Origin: an uncultured Chloroflexia bacterium
GTDB taxonomy: Bacteria; Chloroflexota; Anaerolineae; JAAYZQ01
NCBI GenBank assembly: GCA_963700285.1
Contig: CAVOXA010000010.1
Coordinates: 1,824,001-1,888,000 of the forward strand
Direction of reading: 5' to 3'
Length of the DNA stretch: 64,000 bases
In this document: one piece after another, positions 28,182-40,074 of the stretch
How the letters are laid out: each line of letters starts with the position of its first letter
Position numbering within the stretch: position 1 is the first letter of the stretch
The notes under the pieces: generated by a model
The model's database searches: none
The model's input: the letters and a program-made list of their open reading frames with translations, nothing else
What the model was told of the DNA's origin: nothing
Translations under genes and position numbers: made by a program

Positions 28182-29699
28182 ATGCTTGCCAAAGTCGCCA
28201 GCTTTGCCCTGATCGGCCTGGAAAGTACCCTCGTTGACGTGGAGGTCGACATCAGCCGCGGCCTGCCCTCTCAGATCATCGTCGGCCTGCCCGATGCCGC
28301 CGTCCGAGAATCCAGCGAGCGCGTACGAGCGGCCATCGTCAACTCCGGCCTCATCCATCCCCGCGCCCGCCTGACGGTCAACCTGGCCCCCGCCGATCTA
28401 CGCAAGGCGGGCCCGGCCTACGACCTGCCCATCGCCGTCTGCATTCTCCTGGCCACAGAGCAGGTCAGTGCCGACCTGGCGTCGGCCGGCCTGGTTGGGG
28501 AGCTGTCACTGGATGGCCAGGTCCGGGGCGTAACCGGCATGTTGCCCATGGCCGTCGCGGCCCTGGAGCGGGGGCTGACTACTCTCATCGTGCCCGAGTC
28601 CAACGCCGCGGAAGCGGCCCTGGTCCAGGGGCTGGAGGTGATCCCGGTACGCAGCTTGAGCAGCCTGGTCGGCCACCTCCACGGCTATACTCCCATCCCG
28701 CCCTACGAGGGTTCACTGACAGAAGGCGATGGGCTTCCTGTCTATCCGGTCGATTTTCGCGATGTGAAAGGGCAGGAACATGTCAAACGGGCGCTGGAGG
28801 TTGCCTCCGCAGGCTCGCACAATGTGCTTCTCAGCGGCCCGCCGGGCGCAGGCAAGACCCTTTTGGCCCGCGCCGTGCCCTCCATCCTGCCGCGGATGAC
28901 CTTCGAGGAATCGCTGACCGTAACCAAGATCTATAGCGTTGCCGGCCAGTTGCCGCCCGGCATCCCGCTCATCCGCCACCGGCCCTTCCGGGCGCCCCAC
29001 CATACCATCAGCTACGCGGGTCTCGTCGGCGGCGGCAAGGTGCCTCATCCGGGCGAGATCTCTTTGGCGCATCGCGGCGTCCTCTTCTTGGACGAGCTGC
29101 CCGAGTTTGGAACAAGGCTGCTGGAAATGCTGCGCCAGCCACTGGAGGACAAACAACTGACTATCGCCCGCAGTTCGGGTTCTCTGACCTTTCCGACCAA
29201 TTTCATGCTGATCGCGGCACAAAACCCATGTCCCTGTGGTTACTACGGCGATCCGGTCAAAGAGTGCACCTGCTCCAACAGCATGGTCAGCCGCTACCAG
29301 AAGCGCATCTCTGGGCCGTTGTTAGACCGCTTTGACATCCACATCGAGGTCCCCCGTGTGGACTATGAAAAGCTCTCCGGCGACCGGTTGGGGGAGCCCT
29401 CGGCCGCCATCCGGGAGCGGGTGGAGGCGGCGCGGGAGCGCCAGCGCCAGCGATTTGAGGGTACGAGCCTGCTGTCCAACGCCGATATGGGCGCGGCCGA
29501 GGTGCGCAATTTTTGCCAGGTCGATGAAGCCGGCCGGAACCTGCTGCGGGCGGCCATGCAGCAGCTCCACATGAGCGCCCGGGCCTACCATCGCATCCTC
29601 AAGCTGTCCCGGACGATTGCTGACCTGGCCGGCAGCGATGCCATCGAGACGGCGCACCTGGCGGAGGCGATCCAGTACCGGCCTCGGAGGCAGAGCTAG
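28182..29699 (+). CDS. comM: ComM/YifB AAA+ helicase (Mg-chelatase-like), intact
   Basis: IVGLPDAAVRES, VNLAPADLRKAG, GPPGAGKT, RPFRAPHH, GEISLAHRGVLFLDE, NPCPCG, SGPLLDRFD, SARAYHRILK. Confidence 0.95.
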   Translation: MLAKVASFALIGLESTLVDVEVDISRGLPSQIIVGLPDAAVRESSERVRAAIVNSGLIHPRARLTVNLAPADLRKAGPAYDLPIAVCILLATEQVSADLASAGLVGELSLDGQVRGVTGMLPMAVAALERGLTTLIVPESNAAEAALVQGLEVIPVRSLSSLVGHLHGYTPIPPYEGSLTEGDGLPVYPVDFRDVKGQEHVKRALEVASAGSHNVLLSGPPGAGKTLLARAVPSILPRMTFEESLTVTKIYSVAGQLPPGIPLIRHRPFRAPHHTISYAGLVGGGKVPHPGEISLAHRGVLFLDELPEFGTRLLEMLRQPLEDKQLTIARSSGSLTFPTNFMLIAAQNPCPCGYYGDPVKECTCSNSMVSRYQKRISGPLLDRFDIHIEVPRVDYEKLSGDRLGEPSAAIRERVEAARERQRQRFEGTSLLSNADMGAAEVRNFCQVDEAGRNLLRAAMQQLHMSARAYHRILKLSRTIADLAGSDAIETAHLAEAIQYRPRRQS

Positions 29700-29846
29700 G
29701 TATCTCGCCGAATCGCGGTATCAGATTAGGCAGGACCGGAGGTCAAGCAGGCTGAGGCAACGTGGGAGAAGGGGACTGCAGATACCCTGCCTCATCGGTC
29801 ACAGGCCGCAGAAGGCTTGGCCTAGGCGTCTTTTGCGGGGTTGCTT

Positions 29847-30160
29847 TCAGAGTATACTACCACCATCCCCGTCGAACTCCTGCGGATCGCAGCCGACAAC
29901 CCGGAATCAACAGAAGGCTATCTCGCCGCAGTCGAGGTCCGGTGGCGCCGGCGGTATGCACACGTCTGGGTAGCAGGGGCTGCAGATTGGGTCAGGTGTG
30001 GGTGGAGGCGATAGAGGGCTACCTCTGCTGACGTACGGCAAGTAAGCACCCGCAGCGGGTAGGCGAGAAGCAAAGACGGAAACTTGTGCGCCAGGCATCC
30101 TACTCTCCACTACGAGTAGCAGAGCGGCCACGATGACTATCAAGCCTGCGACTGCCACGG
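29847..30160 (-). pseudogene. Small secreted Cys-rich excalibur-like Ca-binding protein with a premature TGA
   Basis: Hydrophobic leader, AYLPYV, CSPCYPDVCIPPAPPDLDCGEIAFC*; same frame continues FRVVGCDPQEFDGDGG after the stop at 29907-29909; start approximate. Confidence 0.55.
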
Positions 30161-30269
30161 TCTTTCGCAGCACGGATTCGGTTCTCCTTGCGAGCTGGTG
30201 GGTGGCTCCTGTGTCCCTATTGTATGCCAAATTACACAGGAGGGCAAGTCGGGCTCTCAAATCTTGGCC

Positions 30270-30530
30270 AGCGGGCCAACGCATTCGAATGGCGTGCTTT
30301 TGATGGCAGCCTGTTGTCTTGACGAAAGCGCCCAGGAGATGACCTTTCTCTTTTCTACTCGCCTGACCGTAGCGGGCCTGAAGCAGCCTGAGGAGGGTGC
30401 CGTCGACTTGACTCACGGGAAGGCTCCTTTCTTGGGTAGCATCTTCTCATGAATCATCGAACCAGCTACGGTAACGTTTATTCGCGAGTCGACAAACGCT
30501 CTTCAGCAATCTTCTTAGTGAGTCAAGTCG
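30270..30530 (-). mobile_element. IS remnant: transposase N-terminal fragment plus three subterminal repeats
   Basis: RYGQASRKEKGHLLGAFVKTTGCHQKHAIR resembles the N-terminus of integrase-core IS transposases; upstream are three GGTAAC..TGAGTCA-like units at 30435, 30470, 30505. Confidence 0.65.
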
Positions 30531-30820
30531 AAGTATTGACTCCTGCACGCTGTTTTGGTACAATTGATTCAGTCATCCCTGAACAACACTGCTCACAGTT
30601 CCTTGCAGCCTCATCGAGGATTGAACCGGTGACCAAGGTACTTGGTGCGCCACGGTCGCAGTCATCAAAGTATAGCACCCGTTCGCCGTCAAGGTGTGGT
30701 GGGTCTTATGCTTTGCCGAGATCCTAGCGTCAAGGTGAGCAGGGCTTCCGCCTGACAGGTCTCGTCCGCTCGTGCCATCCCACGCGCAGGTTCGCTGAAC
30801 CAGCAGGAGGAGGATCTGAG

Positions 30821-32124
30821 ATGAGACTCCGGAGACTTTTACAGTACGCCATCAGTATGGCAGGGATCCTGTCGCTCTTGGTTGGGTGCAGCGCCCCCGC
30901 AGTTGCCCCTGGGGCTGTTGCAGCGTCCTCAAAGGAGCGTATCTTCTCACCAGACACATCGAGCGCGGACCTGAGGGAATTGGCAGCCGGCAATAACGCT
31001 TTCGCCTTCGACCTATACCAGGCTTTGCGTGGCGGAGAGGAAAACCTCCTCTATTCGCCCTATAGCATATCCGTCGCAATGGCCATGGTCTATGCCGGCG
31101 CGCGCGGACAGACGGAACAGCAAATGGCCGATACGCTGCACTTCGAGCTGCCTCAGGAACGGCTGCATCCGGCCTTTAATTCCCTGGACCTCGAATTGGA
31201 CAGCCGCAGCCTCGCAAACACCCGGCTAGACATCGCCAACGCGCTCTGGGGACAGGCAGGGTACACCTTCCTGCGCGAGTACCTGGACCTGCTGGCGCTG
31301 AACTATGGTGCAGGCGTCAGGGTTGTCGACTTTCAGGCTGGCGCCCCTGCGGCGGCCGATGCCATCAACCAATGGGTCAGCCGGGAGACCGAAGGCCGCA
31401 TCCGAGACATTCTGGGACCAGACAGCCTTGGGTCGGACACAGTGCTCGTGCTGGTCGACGCCATCTACTTCGATGCCGACTGGAATTTGCCCTTTGACGA
31501 GGCACGCACCAGAGACGAGCCCTTCCACTTGCTGGACGGCGGTGAGGAGTGGGTGCCCTTGATGTACCAACAGAGCTATTTCTCCTATACAGAGGGCGAT
31601 GGCTATCAGGCGATCCAGTTGCTCTACGAGAACCGCAACCTTGCCATGGTCATCCTGCTACCCAGGAGGGCCAGTTCGGCGAGATCGAGGAGCGGCTGAC
31701 GGCCGACTGGGTGACGGCTGTGCTGAACAGTTTCGACTTGCATGACGTGAGACTAACCATGCCCAAGTTCGGCTTTGAGACACCTGTGCTGAACCTCGGG
31801 CAGATACTCGGAGCCATGGGCATGCCCGACGCGTTTTCAAAGCGCGATGCTGATTTTTCTGCGGTGGCCCGACTACAACCCGGCGAGGCCATCTACCTCA
31901 GCAAAGTATTGCACAAGGCCTTTATTGACGTCGCTGAGGAAGGGACAGAGGCTGCTGCAGCGGTGGTGGTCGTAGAGGAAGTCGAAATAGAGATAGAAGT
32001 TGCCCCAACGGAGCCGCCTCCCATAATCATGAAGATCGATAGACCGTTCATGTTTCTCATCCGTGACGTCAAGACGGGTACCATCCTCTTTGTTGGGCGC
32101 GTCATGAATCCAGCCAGTGAATAG
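30821..32124 (+). pseudogene. Serpin (lipoprotein) split by one frameshift near 31662
   Basis: Lipobox LVGC; NNAFAFDLY, SPYSI, INQWVS.ETEGRI, AIYF..DW..PF in ORF 30821; MPKF, HKAFIDVAEEGTEAAA, DRPFMFLIRD, ILFVGRV in ORF 31549; one missing C in a C run restores ILLP-QEGQF, so it may be a sequencing error. Confidence 0.88.
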
Positions 32125-32412
32125 GGGTTCTTTAGCAGGTTGAGGTATATCATGGCTGGAGCAACCTGTCCTGGCCGGATACTCCTAGTCAATCATCAGA
32201 CAGAAAGCCATGGCTCGCGGGATGTGCTGGTTTGTTCACAACGTCGTCACCCGCCACGCATGGTCACCCTGGAGGTCAGAGGTTACCTCGAACCCCAACA
32301 GAAGTGTAGTCTTGTTGCTATCCCCGCCCGTCTCCCCAGCCAATGAGACGCTATGCAAGCACAAGATGGGCAGTCAAGGCAAACTGATCTTTTGACTTGT
32401 GACCAGGTACAT

Positions 32413-32943
32413 GAGTGCACCTGCTCCAACAGCATGGTCAGCCGCTACCAGAAGCGAGTTCCTTCGGCTTCACTCAGGACAAGCTCTGGGCCGTTGTTAG
32501 ACCGCTTTGACATCCACATCGAGGTCCCCCGTGTGGAAGCCGGCTCAGAAGCCGGACGAAAAGCTCTCCGGCGACCGGTTGGGGGAGCCCTCGGCCCTGT
32601 TGTCGCCGAGAACAGGCGTCATCCAGGGGCGGGTGGAGGCGGCGCGAGCGCGACAGCGCCAACGATTTGAGGGGACGAGCTTGCTATCCAATGCCGACGC
32701 CCTTGCCAGGCAAGCGTTGGCGCGGCCGAGGTGCGCAACTTTTGCCAGGTAGACGAAGCCGGCCGGAATCTTCTGCGAGCGGCCATGCAGCAGCTCCACA
32801 TGAGCGCCCGGGCCTACAGCGAACTCTGGGTTCGCCGCATCCTCAAGCTGTCCCGGACGATTGCTGACCTGGCCGGCAGCGACGCCATCGAAACGGCGCA
32901 CCTGGCGGAGGCGATCCAGTACCGGCCGCGGCGGCAGGGCTGA
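32413..32943 (+). repeat. comM 3'-end copy 2 (direct repeat of 29262-29699) with five hairpin insertions
   Basis: Direct nucleotide alignment to comM; ends ...CAGTACCGGCCGCGGCGGCAGGGCTGA. Confidence 0.95.
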
Positions 32944-33003
32944 GGGCACGGAAACCTACACTGGCCGATATCTCTCTGACTGGATATACCGGGGGCAACA
33001 TAG

Positions 33004-34831
33004 GTGGACGATCAGGCTGTTGAGGCAAGACTGCGGCCCGGCTCGGAGCGGGTATTGGAGGCCGTAGCTTCCGGACGTTTCGCCGGATGGCTACCGTATT
33101 CCCTTCGGCTACAGGCCGAGCGGCTGGCCCTCGTCGCCGGCTTTGACGAGCTGGTCTGTCTGGATATGCTCAACTTTGCACCGTTTGACTATCAGATCCG
33201 AGCGGCCCAGATCGCGCTGCGCCGCTTCCGCGGCCGGGGCCTGCTGTGTGACGAGGTCGGCCTGGGCAAGACCATCGAGGCCGGCCTGGTGCTCAAAGAG
33301 TACCTGGTGCGCCAGATGGTCGGCCGCGTGCTGATCGTCACCCCGCCGGCGCTGGTTGAGCAGTGGCGAGAGGAGCTGAGCAGCAAGTTCGACCTGGCCG
33401 ACTTTGTCGACCAGCCACGATCCATCGTTCCGCGACCTGGGCCCGGAGGCGTGGGCCGCCTTTCCCCGCGTCATTGCCTCCCTGGCCACGGCTCGCCGTC
33501 CCGAACACCGCCGGGCGATCACCGACATCGTCTACGATCTGGTGATCGTGGACGAGGCACACCACCTGAAGAACCGCGCCAGTGTCTCCTGGAAGTTCGT
33601 CAACGCTCTCCAGAAAAAGTACATCCTGCTGCTCACGGCCACGCCGGTACAGAACAACCTGGACGAGCTGTACAATCTGATCACGATCCTCAAACCCGGC
33701 CAGCTCAAGACACCCCGCGAGTTCCGCCGCCAGTTCGTAGTGCGGGGCGACCCGCGGCTGCCCAAGAACCGGGGGCGGCTGCGCGAGCTGCTCGCCGACG
33801 TGATGGTGCGCCACGCGCGGGGACAGGTCGGTGTTCAACTCCCACCCCGCCGCGCCCACACCGTGCGCCTGCAATTGGCGGCCGGACGAACGGGCGCTCT
33901 ACGACGACGTGAGCCACTTTGTTCGACGCTGTATCGGCCTGTCGCCGGCCGCTGACAGCGGCCGGCCAGGTACCTGCCAACGGGCCGGAGGGGGCTGAAG
34001 CGGCGCTGCCGGCCGTCCACCGCTTCACCCTGCGCACGCTCCAACGGGAGATCGGCAGCTCTCCGGCCGCCGTCCGCCCGACCCTGCTGGCGCTGGCCGA
34101 GAAGCCGGCGCTGTCCTCCCAGCGCGAGGCGCTGCTGGGCCTGGCTGATCGCGCCGGCAGCCTCGCCTCCTGGACCAAGGGCCAGGCACTGGAGCGGCTC
34201 CTGCTCTCGAAACTGGCGGCCGACGGCCAGGAGAAGCTGATCATCTTCACCCACTTCCACGCCACTCTGGATCTGCTGGCAGACCTGCTGCGGGGAATGG
34301 GCGTGGACGTGGTGACTCTACCACGGCCGGCTCTCGCGAGCGGAGAAGGACGAGGCCATCCGCCGCTTCGAGCAAAGCGCCCAGGTGCTCCTCTCGACCG
34401 AGGCCGCCGGTGAGGGACGCAACCTTCAGTTCTGCCGCCTTGATGCTCAACTTTGACCTGCCCTGGAATCCGCAGCGCATCGAGCAGCGCGTCGGCCGCA
34501 TCCACCGCGTCGGCCAGACCCGCCCGGTGGAGATTTGGAACCTCTCGGCCGAGGGCACGATCGAGGACTATCTCCTGGAAGTGCTCGACCGCAAAGCTGA
34601 ACATGTTCGAACTGGTCATCGGCGAGATGGACATGATCCTGGGCCACCTGGAGGATGAGCGCGACTTTGAGGAGATCGTGCTGGATACCTGGGTCGCGGG
34701 CCCGAACGCCGGAGGAGGTGGCGGCTGGCTTTACCCGTCTGGGCGAGGCGTTGGCCCAGGCCCGGGATGCCTATCGGCGCACCCGCGAGTACGACGAGGC
34801 GTTGTTCGGAGAGGACTTGTCTACGCTATGA
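33004..34831 (+). pseudogene. SNF2-family helicase (YqhH-like), multiply frameshifted
   Basis: LCDEVGLGKTIEAG, VDEAHHLKN, LLTATPVQN, IIFTHF, LLSTEAAGEGRNLQF, NFDLPWNPQRIEQRVGRIHRVGQ spread over successive frames; start uncertain. Confidence 0.88.
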
Positions 34832-36649
34832 GTGAGCTGGCCGACTTTGTCGCTCAACGCTCTCCGCCAGGCAGGAGGTCTCGTCGATCCGCCGGCCTTT
34901 GATCAATACGACGTGCTTTTGCCTGAGGGGTCGCCCGCCGCTGGCAGGTGCCCGCCTTTCAGCGCCTGACCTTTGCCACCGAGACCCCGGAGGCCGGGAG
35001 CGACGGCGAACCGGTCACCGCCATAGGCTATGGCCACCCGCTGGTGGAGACGCCTGGTGGAGGAGATCCGCGCCGAGCCTGCCCGCATGCAGGCCTTTAT
35101 CAACAGCGTGCGGACCGACAAGCGCGGGCTGTTCTCGCTGGCCCGCCAGGCGCTGGCCTTCCCCAACGCCCGCCTCTCGCGAAGCGCCTCGCCAGAGCGA
35201 GGTCGTGGCGACCTGCCACTATGGCGCGCTTCAATTTCAAGGCCGCCCTGATCACCGATGAGAAGCGGGAGCAGTTGGTCTCGGTGGTGATGGACGTCCA
35301 GGCGGGTTTTGCCGTGCCCGAGCTGGCGCAATTGGAGCGGCTGGTGCGCCTGGAGGACGAGCCGGCGCCAGACTGGCACCTGCCTGCGCCGGTGCGCTGG
35401 CTGCCGGGGCAGACGCCCCTGAGCCGTCCGGTGCTGGACAGACTACTCGAGCGGGCCGTTGACGCTGCCATGCAGGAATTGGCAGCACCGTTGGGGGCAC
35501 TGCGCCATCGGGCTGCCCGCTACCTGGAACTGGATCGCGCCCGTCTCCACGAATATTACGACGACATCAGCCGTGACCTGAAGCGCCGCCTCGATCGCGC
35601 CGGCGACCTGCCTCAGGACCAGGCACAGCGCCGGGCTTCTCTGGAGGACAAGCTGGCCGCGACTGACGCAGAGCGGGAGGCCAAACTGGCCGACGTCGAG
35701 GCCAAGTATCGCCCAGAGGTGGAGCTGGAACTGATCAACCTCCAGGTAATCCACCAACCCAAGGTACTCCTGCCGGTGCACATTGGCACCCGCTCGACCA
35801 CCGTCGAGCGCACCGTCGTCTGGGACCCGCTGCTGCACCGCATTGAGCCGCTGGCATGCGACGTGTGCGGGCAGTCGGCGACGCGGCTGATGCTGTGCAG
35901 CGGTGGGCACCTGGCCCACGAGCACTGCCTGCTGCCTGAGCAGTGCGTAGATTGCAAGCGGGTCTACTGCCGCCTCTGCTCCGTTCGGATGGGCCGCTGT
36001 GCGGTATGCGAGCGCCCGGTGTGTGTCCCCAGCCTGAACCGCTGCGGTGAATGCGGACGGGCAACCTGTCGCGAACACGTCGGGCTGTGTCACGCCTCTG
36101 CCGGGCTCCCGGCACGCCCCTCTCCAACCCCTACCCCCGAGCCACCGAAGAAGGAGGAGGGGCTAGACATCCCACCCCCGGCTGCCCAGCCTGCGGTGAA
36201 GGAACAGCCCGTTGCGCCCAAGGGCAAGGCCCGCCAGACCGCCAGGCCCGCCCCGAAAACGAGACAGCGTCCCATCGCCAGGGCGCCGGCCAAGGTGACT
36301 CCCTCCAAGATCGAGGTGTACGTCGAATCTGAGGAGCCCGTGGTGAATGCTTTTGTGCTGACAAAGGGAGCCAAGCAGCTGGCGGTTCGCTCCTGGAAGT
36401 GGACCGGCCAGGCCATCGCGGTCACGTGCCTCTGCGAGTTGGGGTACGCTTGCCCGTTGAACGGGAGGCTGTTGGAGCCGGACAGATGCCGCCGGCGTCG
36501 AAGCGCAGATCAGGGCCCAGATCGAGGACCTGCGCCGGGACTATGGCATTTCCACGCGGCGGGTACTCTACTATGCTTTCGTCCATGGCGTGCCTCGGCA
36601 GGTACCACGCCTGACCCTCTCGGGCGAGTGGAAGGCGAAGCAGGAGTGA
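34828..36649 (+). pseudogene. YqhG-like partner protein with a Cys-rich (Zn-binding) C-terminal region, frameshifted
   Basis: ATGA overlap with the helicase stop; FNFKAALITDEKRE, RLHEYY..., coiled coil, then many CxxC pairs; reconstructed end GEWKAKQE* at 36649. Confidence 0.65.
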
Positions 36650-36738
36650 CCAGGCGTCGACCTTTGCCGAATTCCGTTGGCTCAAGCTCCGCCGCTACAT
36701 ATCGGGGTACCACGGGTGGAGGTTTAGTCACTGGCGGA

Positions 36739-37155
36739 CGACCGGCTGGGCGAGCCGTCGGTAGCGATCCGGGTGCGGGTAGAGGCGGCGCTGGAGCGCC
36801 AGCACCAGCGGTTTGAGGGTACGAGCCTGCTGTCAAATGCCGACGCGCTTACCAGGCAAGCGTCTGCGCGGCCGAGGTACGCAACTTTTGCCAGGTAGAC
36901 GATGTCGTGCCATACCCAGGCACGGGCGCCGGAACCTGCTGCGGGCGGCCATGCAGCAGCTCCACATGAGCGCCCGGGCCTACAACGAACTCTGGGTTCG
37001 CCGCATCCTCATGCTGTCCAGGACAATCGCCGACCCTTCGACAGACTCAGGGCAGGCCTGGCGGGCAGTGAGGGGATCGAGACGGCGCATCCTTCGACTT
37101 TGCTCAGGACAGGCCTGCGGAGGCGATCCAGTACCGGCCGCGACGGCAAACTTGA
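36739..37155 (+). repeat. comM 3'-end copy 3 (direct repeat of about 29381-29699) with five hairpin insertions
   Basis: Direct nucleotide alignment to comM; ends ...CAGTACCGGCCGCGACGGCAAACTTGA. Confidence 0.93.
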
Positions 37156-37277: not shown

Positions 37278-37946
37278 TCAGTCGATGGGAATGACGTCGG
37301 CGTAGGCAAACCCACCCCGCTGCACGACCTCCCCAATCTCGACCTCAATGCGTTTCTCAAACATCGGCCCAGCAACAACGATGGTGTGAATCTCTCCGTT
37401 CTCTCCACACGGGTCAACTCCCGGGGGAAGCTCCTTCAGCAGGTCGCGTGACCACCGGCGGCCCGCGAAACTCGCTGGTAGCTTTTTGAGATCCACACTG
37501 CTGATGTATGCTTCCAGATCGGCGGCGAGCATCTGTTCGGCCAACTCGACAGTGGGGATCTGCCACAGTGGAAAGAGGGGCTCAATCCCACTACCCGCGA
37601 GCTGTCCCTCACGGTACCGACGCACGTCCTCAAGAAACAGGTCGCCGAACGCAATGCACTCCGTCCCCATGGCTGCAGCCCCGGCAACAAACTCGCCCAT
37701 GAGCTCATCGGATCGCTCGATCGTGCAGGGATCTGGTAGATTGATCGTATGGAGCGCCAGGCCAGCTGCCTCCGCTTGCCGAGAAAGCAGCTCTGTTCTT
37801 GTCGAGTGCATGGACACGCGGTTGTACCGCTCGTTCACTACGCTGAACAATCCAACAACATCAACTGTGGGATCCAGTCGCAGGACGTACAGTGCCCAGG
37901 CACTATCCTTGCCGCTACTCCAACTCAGTAACGTTTTCTTTCTCAT
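37278..37946 (-). CDS. PP-loop ATPase, diphthine-ammonia ligase/MJ0570-like
   Basis: SWSSGKDS, FGDLFLEDVRRYRE, FPLW, DPCGENGEIHT. Confidence 0.88.
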   Translation of the reverse strand: MRKKTLLSWSSGKDSAWALYVLRLDPTVDVVGLFSVVNERYNRVSMHSTRTELLSRQAEAAGLALHTINLPDPCTIERSDELMGEFVAGAAAMGTECIAFGDLFLEDVRRYREGQLAGSGIEPLFPLWQIPTVELAEQMLAADLEAYISSVDLKKLPASFAGRRWSRDLLKELPPGVDPCGENGEIHTIVVAGPMFEKRIEVEIGEVVQRGGFAYADVIPID

Positions 37947-38330
37947 GGTATTCTTTGTCGAACAGCCAAGCTCATCCACCAACACAGCTTGCCGCTAATC
38001 TATCCAGCAACGTGCCTCTTCACCACCAGCGTATCAAACAAGTGCTGAATCCCGCTGGGTGCGAGAATAAGGGCAGCACCTTCTCGCCGCAGCCTGATCA
38101 AGCCGCCTCCGTAGTCAACAGCCACCTGGTCGGTTGCCTGGATGGTGTCAAAGTCTTCACCGATCAGCAGATCGCTGACGCCGTTGGGGTACCGTGCCGT
38201 CCTGGCCTTGATGATAGGTCTCGCCCAGGAGGATCAGCCGAAAGTAGTCGAGGCAGTGCTCTGGGTTGACTGTAGTCAAAGGGATGGCGTGATCGGCTGC
38301 AGCTTGCTTCACAGGTGTTTCTCTCTGTGC

Positions 38331-39731
38331 TCATACGTGGAGCCTGCTCTCCCCCAGATAGTGATATAGATGCACTGCCCTCTCGATACCGAGCCCAAAG
38401 TGGTCCAGAAGCAGATACTCGTTGGGTGCGTGGCCGTTGTCGCCAACGCCAAGACCAAAGTCCAGCATGGGAATCCCCAGTTCGCTGTGCAGCATACCTA
38501 ATACCGGTATCGAACCCCCATGCCGGAACAGGACCGCCCGCTGTCCCCATGTCGCCTCGTATGCTCGCTGCAATGCCGCAAGGGCAGGACCCTCGCTAAG
38601 CAGCTCGGCTGGCTTGCTCCTATCCACAATCTCCACCCGGATCTCCAGCGTCGGGCACTCGAAACTCATAACAAAGTCGCGGAACTTCCGGGCGATGTCG
38701 TCGGGAGCCTGGTCGGGGACGATGCGCATGCTGGCTTTCAAACCGGCCATGGCAGGGATGATGGTCATCTGACCCTCATCTGTGTAGCCGCCGTAGACGC
38801 CGGTTACATCCAGTGTCGGCTGCATCGTCGCCCGCTCCAGCACCGAGAACTCTGGTACACCCCAGAATTCAGCCACCCCAGATTTCGCCTGGAAGGACGG
38901 GATGGCGATAGGTTCCCATGCCTTCAATTGCTCCAGGACAGATGGAGAACCCTGGCGAACGTCATCATAGTATCCTGGAATCTGAATCCGTCCTTCATCG
39001 TTGTGAAACGCGGCAATGATCTTGCCAACCATGTGCGCAGGATTGTGAACGATCCCGCCAAAGGATCCCGAATGCAGGTCCCGCCGGGGCCCGGTGATGA
39101 TGACGTCCCCCGCCACAATGCCGCGTGTCGATGTTGCACACAAGGGCTGATCGGGCAACGGACCGCCATCGGAGACGAGCAGCAGATCTGCCGCTAGGAG
39201 TTCCCTGTGCTCGGCGATGAAGGCTCCCATGCTCGGTGAGCCAGCTTCCTCCTCTCCCTCAAAGAACACTTTGACGTTGACGGGGAGTTCCCCCGCGGAT
39301 CCGAGCATCGCCTCCAATGCCTTCAAGTTGATATAGGCGCCGGCCTTGTCGTCTATCACCCCACGGGCATATAGCTTGTCGTCCCGGATCGCCGGCTCAA
39401 AGGGAGGGGACTCCCACAATTCAATGGGGCCGAAAGGTTGGACGTCGTAGTGCGCATACACCAACAGCGTTGGCTGATCAGGACCTGCTTCCAGCCACTC
39501 GCCGTAGGCCACGGGATGACCTTCACTCGGCAGTACCTGGGCGTTCCTTAGCCCGATTCTGGTCATCTCGGCCACCAGCCACTCTGCCGCACGCAACACA
39601 TCGCCTGTGTAGGCCGGATTGGTGCTGATAGAGGGGATGCGCAGCAGCTGTTTAAAATCTTCCAGAAATACCCCGTAATTCTCCTGAGCATAGGCAACTG
39701 CATGCTGAATCGTTTCTTTTTGCCCTGTCAT
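38331..39731 (-). CDS. M20 family dipeptidase
   Basis: YAHYDVQP, ARGVIDDK, EGEEEAGS, DLHSG, GGSIP, HAPNE; RBS before MTGQKE. Confidence 0.9.
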   Translation of the reverse strand: MTGQKETIQHAVAYAQENYGVFLEDFKQLLRIPSISTNPAYTGDVLRAAEWLVAEMTRIGLRNAQVLPSEGHPVAYGEWLEAGPDQPTLLVYAHYDVQPFGPIELWESPPFEPAIRDDKLYARGVIDDKAGAYINLKALEAMLGSAGELPVNVKVFFEGEEEAGSPSMGAFIAEHRELLAADLLLVSDGGPLPDQPLCATSTRGIVAGDVIITGPRRDLHSGSFGGIVHNPAHMVGKIIAAFHNDEGRIQIPGYYDDVRQGSPSVLEQLKAWEPIAIPSFQAKSGVAEFWGVPEFSVLERATMQPTLDVTGVYGGYTDEGQMTIIPAMAGLKASMRIVPDQAPDDIARKFRDFVMSFECPTLEIRVEIVDRSKPAELLSEGPALAALQRAYEATWGQRAVLFRHGGSIPVLGMLHSELGIPMLDFGLGVGDNGHAPNEYLLLDHFGLGIERAVHLYHYLGESRLHV

Positions 39732-40074
39732 GCTAAACTCCTCTCCGAAAATCATATACGCTCCCACTGTACAAAAATCACCGGCCCGCTTACGGCTGCA
39801 GGTTAGCGCAACAGCTTGACCTCTTGGAGCATCGGTCGCAGCCAACGACCTGGAATCGGTCATTGAACATCTCCCTGCCGTCGAGGTCCGTTGGTATTGT
39901 AATCTAGATTGTAGAAATGGACAAGGCTCGAACCCCGATCAAGGCCGACATGACATGCAGAATCAGGCCGCCTGCCAACTTCCAGTGGGTGCAGTCGGTT
40001 CTCGTTCGGCCCGGGCCAAGCCAAATCCAAGGTGATTTTACCAAGTCGGCCAGGTGCTAGCAGCCTTCGTCACT

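Follow-up and report, generated by a model that had tools for sequence, protein, structure and literature searches.

The 64,000-nucleotide (nt) stretch analysed here, hereafter the window, belongs to the genome of an uncultured Chloroflexia bacterium (assembly GCA_963700285.1, contig CAVOXA010000010.1, positions 1,824,001 to 1,888,000; genome G000, 7.05 Mb, 89% complete, bin contamination 6.5%) and contains the competence gene comM followed by displaced copies of its own 3′ half, with unrelated cargo genes between and behind them. The intact comM, a YifB-family AAA+ helicase gene, lies on the forward strand at 28182–29699, with nuoN directly 5′ of it. It forms one open frame of 505 amino acids (aa) and matched PF01078, PF13335 and, above the cut-off, TIGR00368. 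The Asn-Pro codons of its NPCPCG motif (comM nt 1042–1047; window 29223–29228) mark a site at which 3′ fragments start.

Two copies lie downstream on the same strand. Copy 2 (32413–32943) extends from comM nt 1081 to a stop codon at 32941–32943 that matches the comM stop, with 93.1% ungapped identity (406/436, over a slightly longer local alignment of 436 columns; BLAST E 2e-128). Copy 3 (36698–37155) aligned from nt 1200 at 36737, and weakly from nt 1159 at 36698, to the comM stop codon at 37155 (88.4%, 275/311; E 2e-52). Indeed, the preliminary description of the locus had reported an intact comM with two such copies ending at its stop, and BLAST and alignment bear this out; the displaced repeats are real. 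The BLAST comparison with the whole genome and its relatives that it had proposed returned, within G000, copy 2, copy 3 and a fourth fragment on contig C7. This orphan 3′ fragment (G000:C7:50084–50506; 82.7% ungapped identity) has insertions at the copy-2 positions and is not accompanied by a stub of the kind described below. The C7 fragment was new relative to that description, as were five insertions of 15–24 nt in each copy, two short coding stubs upstream of copy 2, and a 12-nt comM remnant (32320–32331, forward strand; comM nt 1043–1054) that represents an old right junction.

The insertions measured 24, 16, 21, 17 and 15 nt in copy 2 and 17, 20, 15, 23 and 24 nt in copy 3, and two were common to both copies. 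About 790 nt of comM homology thus hold 10 insertions, and the 3.7-kb SNF2 helicase block between the copies holds none of 12 nt or more. Folding analyses placed 6 of the 10, with hand-chosen bounds, at or above the level of 95% of base shuffles. Four of the 44 genomic copies of a 23-nt repeat family lie inside comM fragments. Insertions of different sequence occupy these comM positions in other genera too, and nt 1442 is hit in three genomes; the fragment of the relative G001 has none, and the copies of G348 are full open frames. Elsewhere in G000, the 23-nt family also inserts into other intergenic repeats, and long tandem repeat tracts occur on C7 (~158–160 kb) and C10 (~1338–1340 kb). A self-comparison of G000 for insertion density, covering part of the contigs, aligned 840 kb and contained at least 316 gaps of 12–35 nt.

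Neutral decay of a local duplicate is expected to produce mostly non-silent changes. Copy 2 differed from the resident comM by 20 silent and 8 non-silent codon differences and copy 3 by 21 and 12; the orthologous comM genes of G000 and G001 differed by 24 and 7. Because these differences from the resident gene are mostly silent, the copies look like former working comM alleles. The fragments of G000, G001, G012 and G020 were each nearest to the comM sequence of their own genome.

Immediately upstream of copy 2, two short reverse-strand coding stubs were recognized in the order stub 1, 12 nt of comM, stub 3, copy 2; none was found before copy 3. Stub 1 (32236–32319) reads about 27 codons to a stop, with a peptide conserved in seven aligned copies, and would be the C-terminus of a recombinase cut at the NPC site. 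Stub 3 (32351–32412) reads about 20 codons to a stop, is common to G001 and, more loosely, G021, and is a candidate remnant of a second element inserted at nt 1081. Across the seven copies of stub 1, variability was highest at the third codon position (0.47 vs 0.29 and 0.18), with 121 silent against 61 non-silent single-base codon differences. About 90 nt upstream of the fragment start were conserved in six of seven aligned junctions, the exception being G039.

The start points coincide with sites used by large serine recombinases (LSRs). Fragments begin at nt 1042–1045, the NPC codons, in G015, G019, G020 (twice), G348 (four times) and three metagenome contigs, and the serine recombinase of G039 is cut at those same codons. 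The junction at 32320 in the window, although degraded, is this G039 cut site. In G039, G014 and G297 comM is truncated, and a convergent LSR beside it ends in comM sequence of reversed orientation. Uncut fusions of recombinase and helix-turn-helix sequence account for 12 of the 120 listed homologues of the G039 LSR, and the sequence that continues them agrees with the right junction of G039, in the register in which stub 1 of the window is read. For the G014 family, six uncut tails chosen by eye from 101 were made into a profile, which in a search of 10,792 segments matched the stubs of G001, G012 and locus L054 (E 1.7e-5 to 0.013; next-best E 1.4). Since their own recombinase body was not found, the assignment of stubs 1 and 3 as putative serine-recombinase tails draws on position, strand, register and codon pattern. 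Because the copies start at LSR-used sites and carry apparent LSR C-terminal stubs, they are most simply read as scars of the right attachment site (attR) of LSR elements.

A recombinase was sought within the arrays and beyond them. No recombinase family was recognized by Pfam among the scanned array open reading frames (ORFs) of about 100 aa or more, except beside truncated comM, and tblastn of two LSRs on the arrays matched none. The preliminary description had noted the lack of an integrase; this stands for the cassettes themselves, in which no recombinase was found, and does not extend to their origin, given LSR sites and apparent LSR stubs at the copies. A dedicated resident recombinase was not supported, as the 89%-complete genome gave no PF07508 or PF00239 match; one weak tblastn LSR match (E 1.6e-4) fell on another contig. 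In searches for the parent of stub 1, its profile matched 11 of 1.84 billion representatives, none a recombinase by inspection and two being long repeat proteins. A further search for a longer protein gave two matches, both of which were rejected as chance fusions. Over 401 genomes of the class, the stub-1 profile matched four, as stubs alone. A pattern for the left junction occurred in one of these 401 genomes (G039), and its longer version in no viral contig. The right-junction pattern gave 17 matches in genome contigs, three of them with comM sequence, and three of three in the metagenome scan. Among the LSR matches of the family (n = 39), the 20 loci examined by tblastn had no comM beside them.

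Several junctions of related type were encountered elsewhere. In G001, stub 1 occurs far from comM at L060:9839–9990 and at L102 (contigs C4 and C3), one with 23 comM codons and a second stub type upstream, the other without comM sequence. L054:538–700 holds a nested pair of different stubs resembling that of the window; about 20 nt lie between them, and no recombinase body. Fragments starting near aa 315–320 at L133 and L137 (G267 and G194) have a common upstream end, which hints at a further family of elements near Walker B. Two open comM fragments of G360 (L146:2684 and 16262) start from aa 203, 13.6 kb apart and with a common upstream end; aa 203 is a further candidate attachment (att) site. 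Finally, a serine recombinase in G348 (L149:757–2430, contig C9) ends in another gene, which we take to be RadC-like, and is cut like the comM-targeting LSRs.

The layout of the window recurs among relatives, both in its own family and in others. A near-complete comM was present in 14 of 23 family genomes, and in 6 of these 14 (G000, G001, G003, G012, G015 and G020) the contig that carries it also has one or more 3′ fragments behind it; in two of the remaining eight the contig ends within 2 kb. In the class sample, comM aa 280–383 was matched in 350 of 401 genomes, with multiple matches in 34 of the 350, a count made from a table in which G000 itself is entered as single. Fifteen genomes were inspected, comprising 14 with multiple matches and one with a single weak match. 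Intact comM with downstream fragments was found in G267, G313, G348 and G376, and a recombinase-cut comM in G297, the remainder of the fifteen being split over contigs or ambiguous. G267 has about 10 comM fragments over 62 kb with mostly metabolic cargo. In G348 the order is comM, type III-D Cas, fragment, Hachiman, fragment and, on another contig, fragment, PIN gene, fragment; its complete type III-D Cas operon, with a CARF nuclease and an EAD7 gene, forms a single block behind comM (L129:3033–14222). The five G348 comM copies are 84–92% identical in DNA and 90–95% in protein, and all are open to the stop. In one G020 haplotype comM is followed by the SNF2 pair, Wadjet, a remnant, then twice over a HicA-type pair and a fragment, and a last remnant; the HicB partners and the first pair were identified by eye. 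The other haplotype is 95.8% alike upstream and carries different cargo. The proposal that cargo downstream of comM is variable was thus borne out, both between relatives and between the two G020 haplotypes. Strict integron-like polarity was not supported: in G020 a copy of 95% identity lies farther from comM than the most worn remnant.

Signs of recombination through comM were of two kinds, and both agree with the earlier suggestion that the 3′ end of the gene is used for recombination. The first concerns cargo. The SNF2 gene follows the comM stop with a common spacer in G000, G020 and metagenome contig L056, directly behind intact comM in G020 and behind stub and fragment in L056 and the window. 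The G000 and G020 genes are 89.3% identical, against 79.8–82.5% in five other pairs, whereas comM 5′-half identity across the same six pairs was 78.7–81.1% (G000/G020 comM, 78.8%), and G000 and G020 comM agree at only 78% in their 3′ bodies. From the high SNF2 identity and common spacer set against these 3′ bodies, it is likely that the SNF2 cargo crossed genera with the last ~45 nt of comM, or that the 3′ body was replaced later. The second kind is allelic. The two G020 comM alleles are mosaic, with 11 differing sites in the first 80 nt past the att site and four in the next 320. G000 and G001 have both nested stubs in common, yet their cargo differs on both sides, and from nt 1134 onward each fragment groups with the comM of its host at every informative site (16/16). 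No break in comM identity at the att site was seen between G000 and G001 (92.9% vs 91.4%). As to the competence machinery, ComM acts in the integration of heterologous DNA (PMC11472951). In G000 comEC is intact; one frameshift, real or a consensus error, splits dprA (G000:C9:180205–180823).

Anatomy, fixed start points, coding stubs, allele patterns and cargo turnover were observed in the sequences themselves. The reading favoured here, at a probability of roughly 0.6, is that the copies are right-junction scars of LSR elements, that homologous recombination via comM restored the gene, and that it now moves the cargo. An element whose recombinase gene spans its own att site would insert at a fixed comM codon, so that the recombinase body would come to lie next to the 5′ part of comM and its short C-terminal stub next to the 3′ half; such insertions are seen in relatives, and we infer them for the window. 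DNA from a related strain would then rebuild the whole comM and delete the recombinase body, with the stub and the displaced half staying downstream. As the allele patterns suggest, the resulting block of comM 3′ half, cargo and stub would have comM homology on both sides, from which it follows that natural transformation could add it directly behind the att site of a recipient or loop it out. Such movement would need no recombinase and would leave comM unbroken.

Several observations weigh against this reading. A recombinase body was found for neither stub 1 nor stub 3, the tail profile of the G014 family missed both stubs of the window among the 10,792 segments, and copy 3 has no stub. Five sites (nt 1071–1080) group copy 2 with the G001 fragment, although they may belong to the element arm and not to comM. 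Host-tracking of the fragment bodies would also be expected if a helper recombinase inserted blocks from close relatives, and the insertions that break up copies 2 and 3 should weaken their use as homology arms. Neither an empty site nor an excised circle was seen for the organism, in public runs that hold at most 10% of the region's words. In addition, rescue of Acinetobacter comM by recombination did not exceed chance frequency (PMC11472951).

A helper acting in cis, as for cis-mobilizable elements (CIMEs), offers a different route, which is judged unlikely overall. An autonomous LSR element would land in comM, excise together with the downstream stub-bounded block, integrate in a new host and excise alone, which would leave whole comM with a donor 3′ half, cargo and the displaced old half. 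This one scheme would cover the exact starts, the absent recombinase and the whole comM, and it suits the four G348 fragments, which are open, have near-identical 15-nt junction arms and are 84–92% alike mutually and to comM; accretion and cis-mobilization are documented (PMC5704250, PMC3146451). However, no helper matching the stubs was found, the left-junction pattern was confined to G039 among the 401 class genomes, and G348 yielded a single LSR, whose end lies in a gene other than comM. Nor does the scheme account for the transfer of SNF2 with no more than the final ~45 nt of comM, for mosaic 3′ halves, or for stubless fragments that start at nt 1187–1483. Helper-driven movement and homologous recombination through comM may coexist. 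Appreciably less probable is a heap of scars in which independent elements struck comM and each was repaired and decayed in place, with no reuse of cassettes. The degraded window copies, the stubs nested with no body between them and the 13 single-base indels of the SNF2 pair would fit such a history, as would the rate at which comM-type genes are targeted (12.4% of predicted site-specific LSRs; PMC10083194). Against it, cargo begins roughly 10–150 nt past the comM stop codons, the SNF2–comM linkage recurs in G020, L056 and the window, and the two G020 haplotypes carry different stacks.

A true integron analogue, in which a resident tyrosine or HUH recombinase would act in trans and use either the end of comM or the hairpin insertions, would draw on the seven tyrosine-recombinase (PF00589) and four Y1 transposase matches elsewhere in the genome and on insertions at the same comM positions across genera. 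None of those matches falls in the window, the junctions fit LSR sites, the G001 fragment lacks insertions, the G348 fragments are fully open and the order is not strictly polar, which together make this explanation very improbable. Misassembly of the array is likewise unlikely. That strain variants were wrongly joined in a metagenome bin is hardly credible, even with a bin contamination of 6.5% and with frameshifts in serpin, SNF2 and dprA that suggest an imperfect consensus, since the copies have diverged by 7–12% with insertions of their own and the same anatomy occurs in independent assemblies. Two junctions also recur in X4, a public run independent of the assembly: its contigs span the copy-2 left junction (32137–32368) with no differences and the start of copy 3 (36638–36819) with one. 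The listed X4 contigs do not bridge a complete cassette, and the copy-2 insertions lie outside all listed pieces.

The cargo of the window was assigned as follows. Between comM and stub 1 lie a 169-aa ORF (29907–30416, reverse strand) and a serpin gene (30821–32124, forward strand) split by one frameshift. The ORF has a presumed transposase-like start and had been called an insertion sequence (IS) remnant; no match was found in Pfam or NCBIfam. The SNF2 helicase gene (33004–34830, forward strand) is frameshifted, starts about 60 nt past the copy-2 stop and is 89.3% identical in nucleotides to the intact gene behind G020 comM. Its frameshifted partner (34828–36649, forward strand; 74% aa identity to the G020 gene) had been assumed to be YqhG-like, and it gave no family match in Pfam, NCBIfam or PADLOC. 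The 13 single-base indels of this pair may reflect decay or consensus error, and the pair does not adjoin comM in G006 or G015. Past copy 3, the first gene encodes a PP-loop ATPase (Diphthami_syn_2; 37278–37985, reverse strand), followed by an M20 peptidase gene (38331–39863, reverse strand) that is either cargo or old flank. The earlier labels of serpin, SNF2, PP-loop ATPase and peptidase are retained, and those of IS remnant and YqhG-like protein had no library match. A non-coding stretch at 38028–38266 is 77% alike to two places in G001, one of them directly behind comM, and is possibly a small mobile remnant.

The Mg-chelatase/comM gene is a favoured LSR target (Durrant et al., PMC10083194, whose supplements may list exact att sites) and is also the target of phage WO sr1WO (PMC9203015). 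The likeness lies in the target gene, the fixed att codons and the displaced 3′ half at the right junction; those elements split comM and keep their recombinase, whereas a whole comM stands here before a stack of several 3′ halves, with no recombinase found. The window has a right junction at a known LSR site, with neither an internal recombinase nor a split target. CIMEs with tandem accretion (PMC5704250) and the Dehalococcoides ssrA islands (PMC3146451), which also belong to Chloroflexota and use serine recombinases, resemble the locus in that tandem islands without a recombinase lie behind a single conserved gene and have direct repeats of its end as their borders. Such islands, bounded by att-derived repeats, are found in the window. 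Their cores are ~20 nt; here the repeats are protein-gene halves of 320–470 nt, long enough for homologous recombination, and only right junctions were seen, the whole gene forming the left boundary where a left attachment site (attL) would be expected.

Insertions with long target duplication (Furuta et al., PMC2853133), mostly from naturally competent species, combine defence cargo with long direct repeats (up to ~420 nt) and no mobility gene, and the window likewise has direct repeats of >30 nt without a mobility gene. Theirs are single and variable in length and site; these are serial, start at fixed recombinase sites and lie in a competence gene. In G001 and in both G020 haplotypes, different cargo occupies the place behind comM, and none of them shows a precise empty site. 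Tn6022/AbaR and Tsy (Faure et al., PMC10293859) also target comM and leave 5′ and 3′ portions, but they hit the Walker B region, encode TnsF or YRec and disrupt the gene. The junctions here lie at aa 348 and 361, and no such Pfam families were found among the scanned window ORFs, no TnsF profile having been run. Integrons are similarly arrays of variable, often defence-related, cargo that enters at one end. The present array differs in having no adjacent intI (none of the seven PF00589 matches lies in the window), comM halves as the delimiters seen where integrons have attC sites, multi-gene blocks and an order that is not strictly polar; it works partly like an integron and is not a true one. 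The closest literature also includes the preprint 10.64898/2026.01.13.699239, and a search mostly outside subscription papers and supplements found no account of comM 3′-half stacks behind an intact gene.

Insertions in comM are read as mobile elements that disable transformation. These loci represent the other outcome, with comM whole and, behind it, stacks of former working 3′ halves and defence cargo, which in relatives includes type III-D Cas, Hachiman, Wadjet and toxin-antitoxin pairs. Past attacks on comM can also be tallied from the stubs. Should gain and loss be driven by homology through the repeats, the locus would be an integrase-free gene-capture site and a hotspot that could be mined for defence genes not yet known. 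It is possible, though doubtful, that many Chloroflexota have turned comM-element scars into a recombinase-free integron analogue to which transformation adds blocks at the front of the stack. In that event each block would carry a working comM 3′ half, the competence gene would supply both homology arms for a collection of defence systems, and hairpin insertions would later lock old blocks in place.

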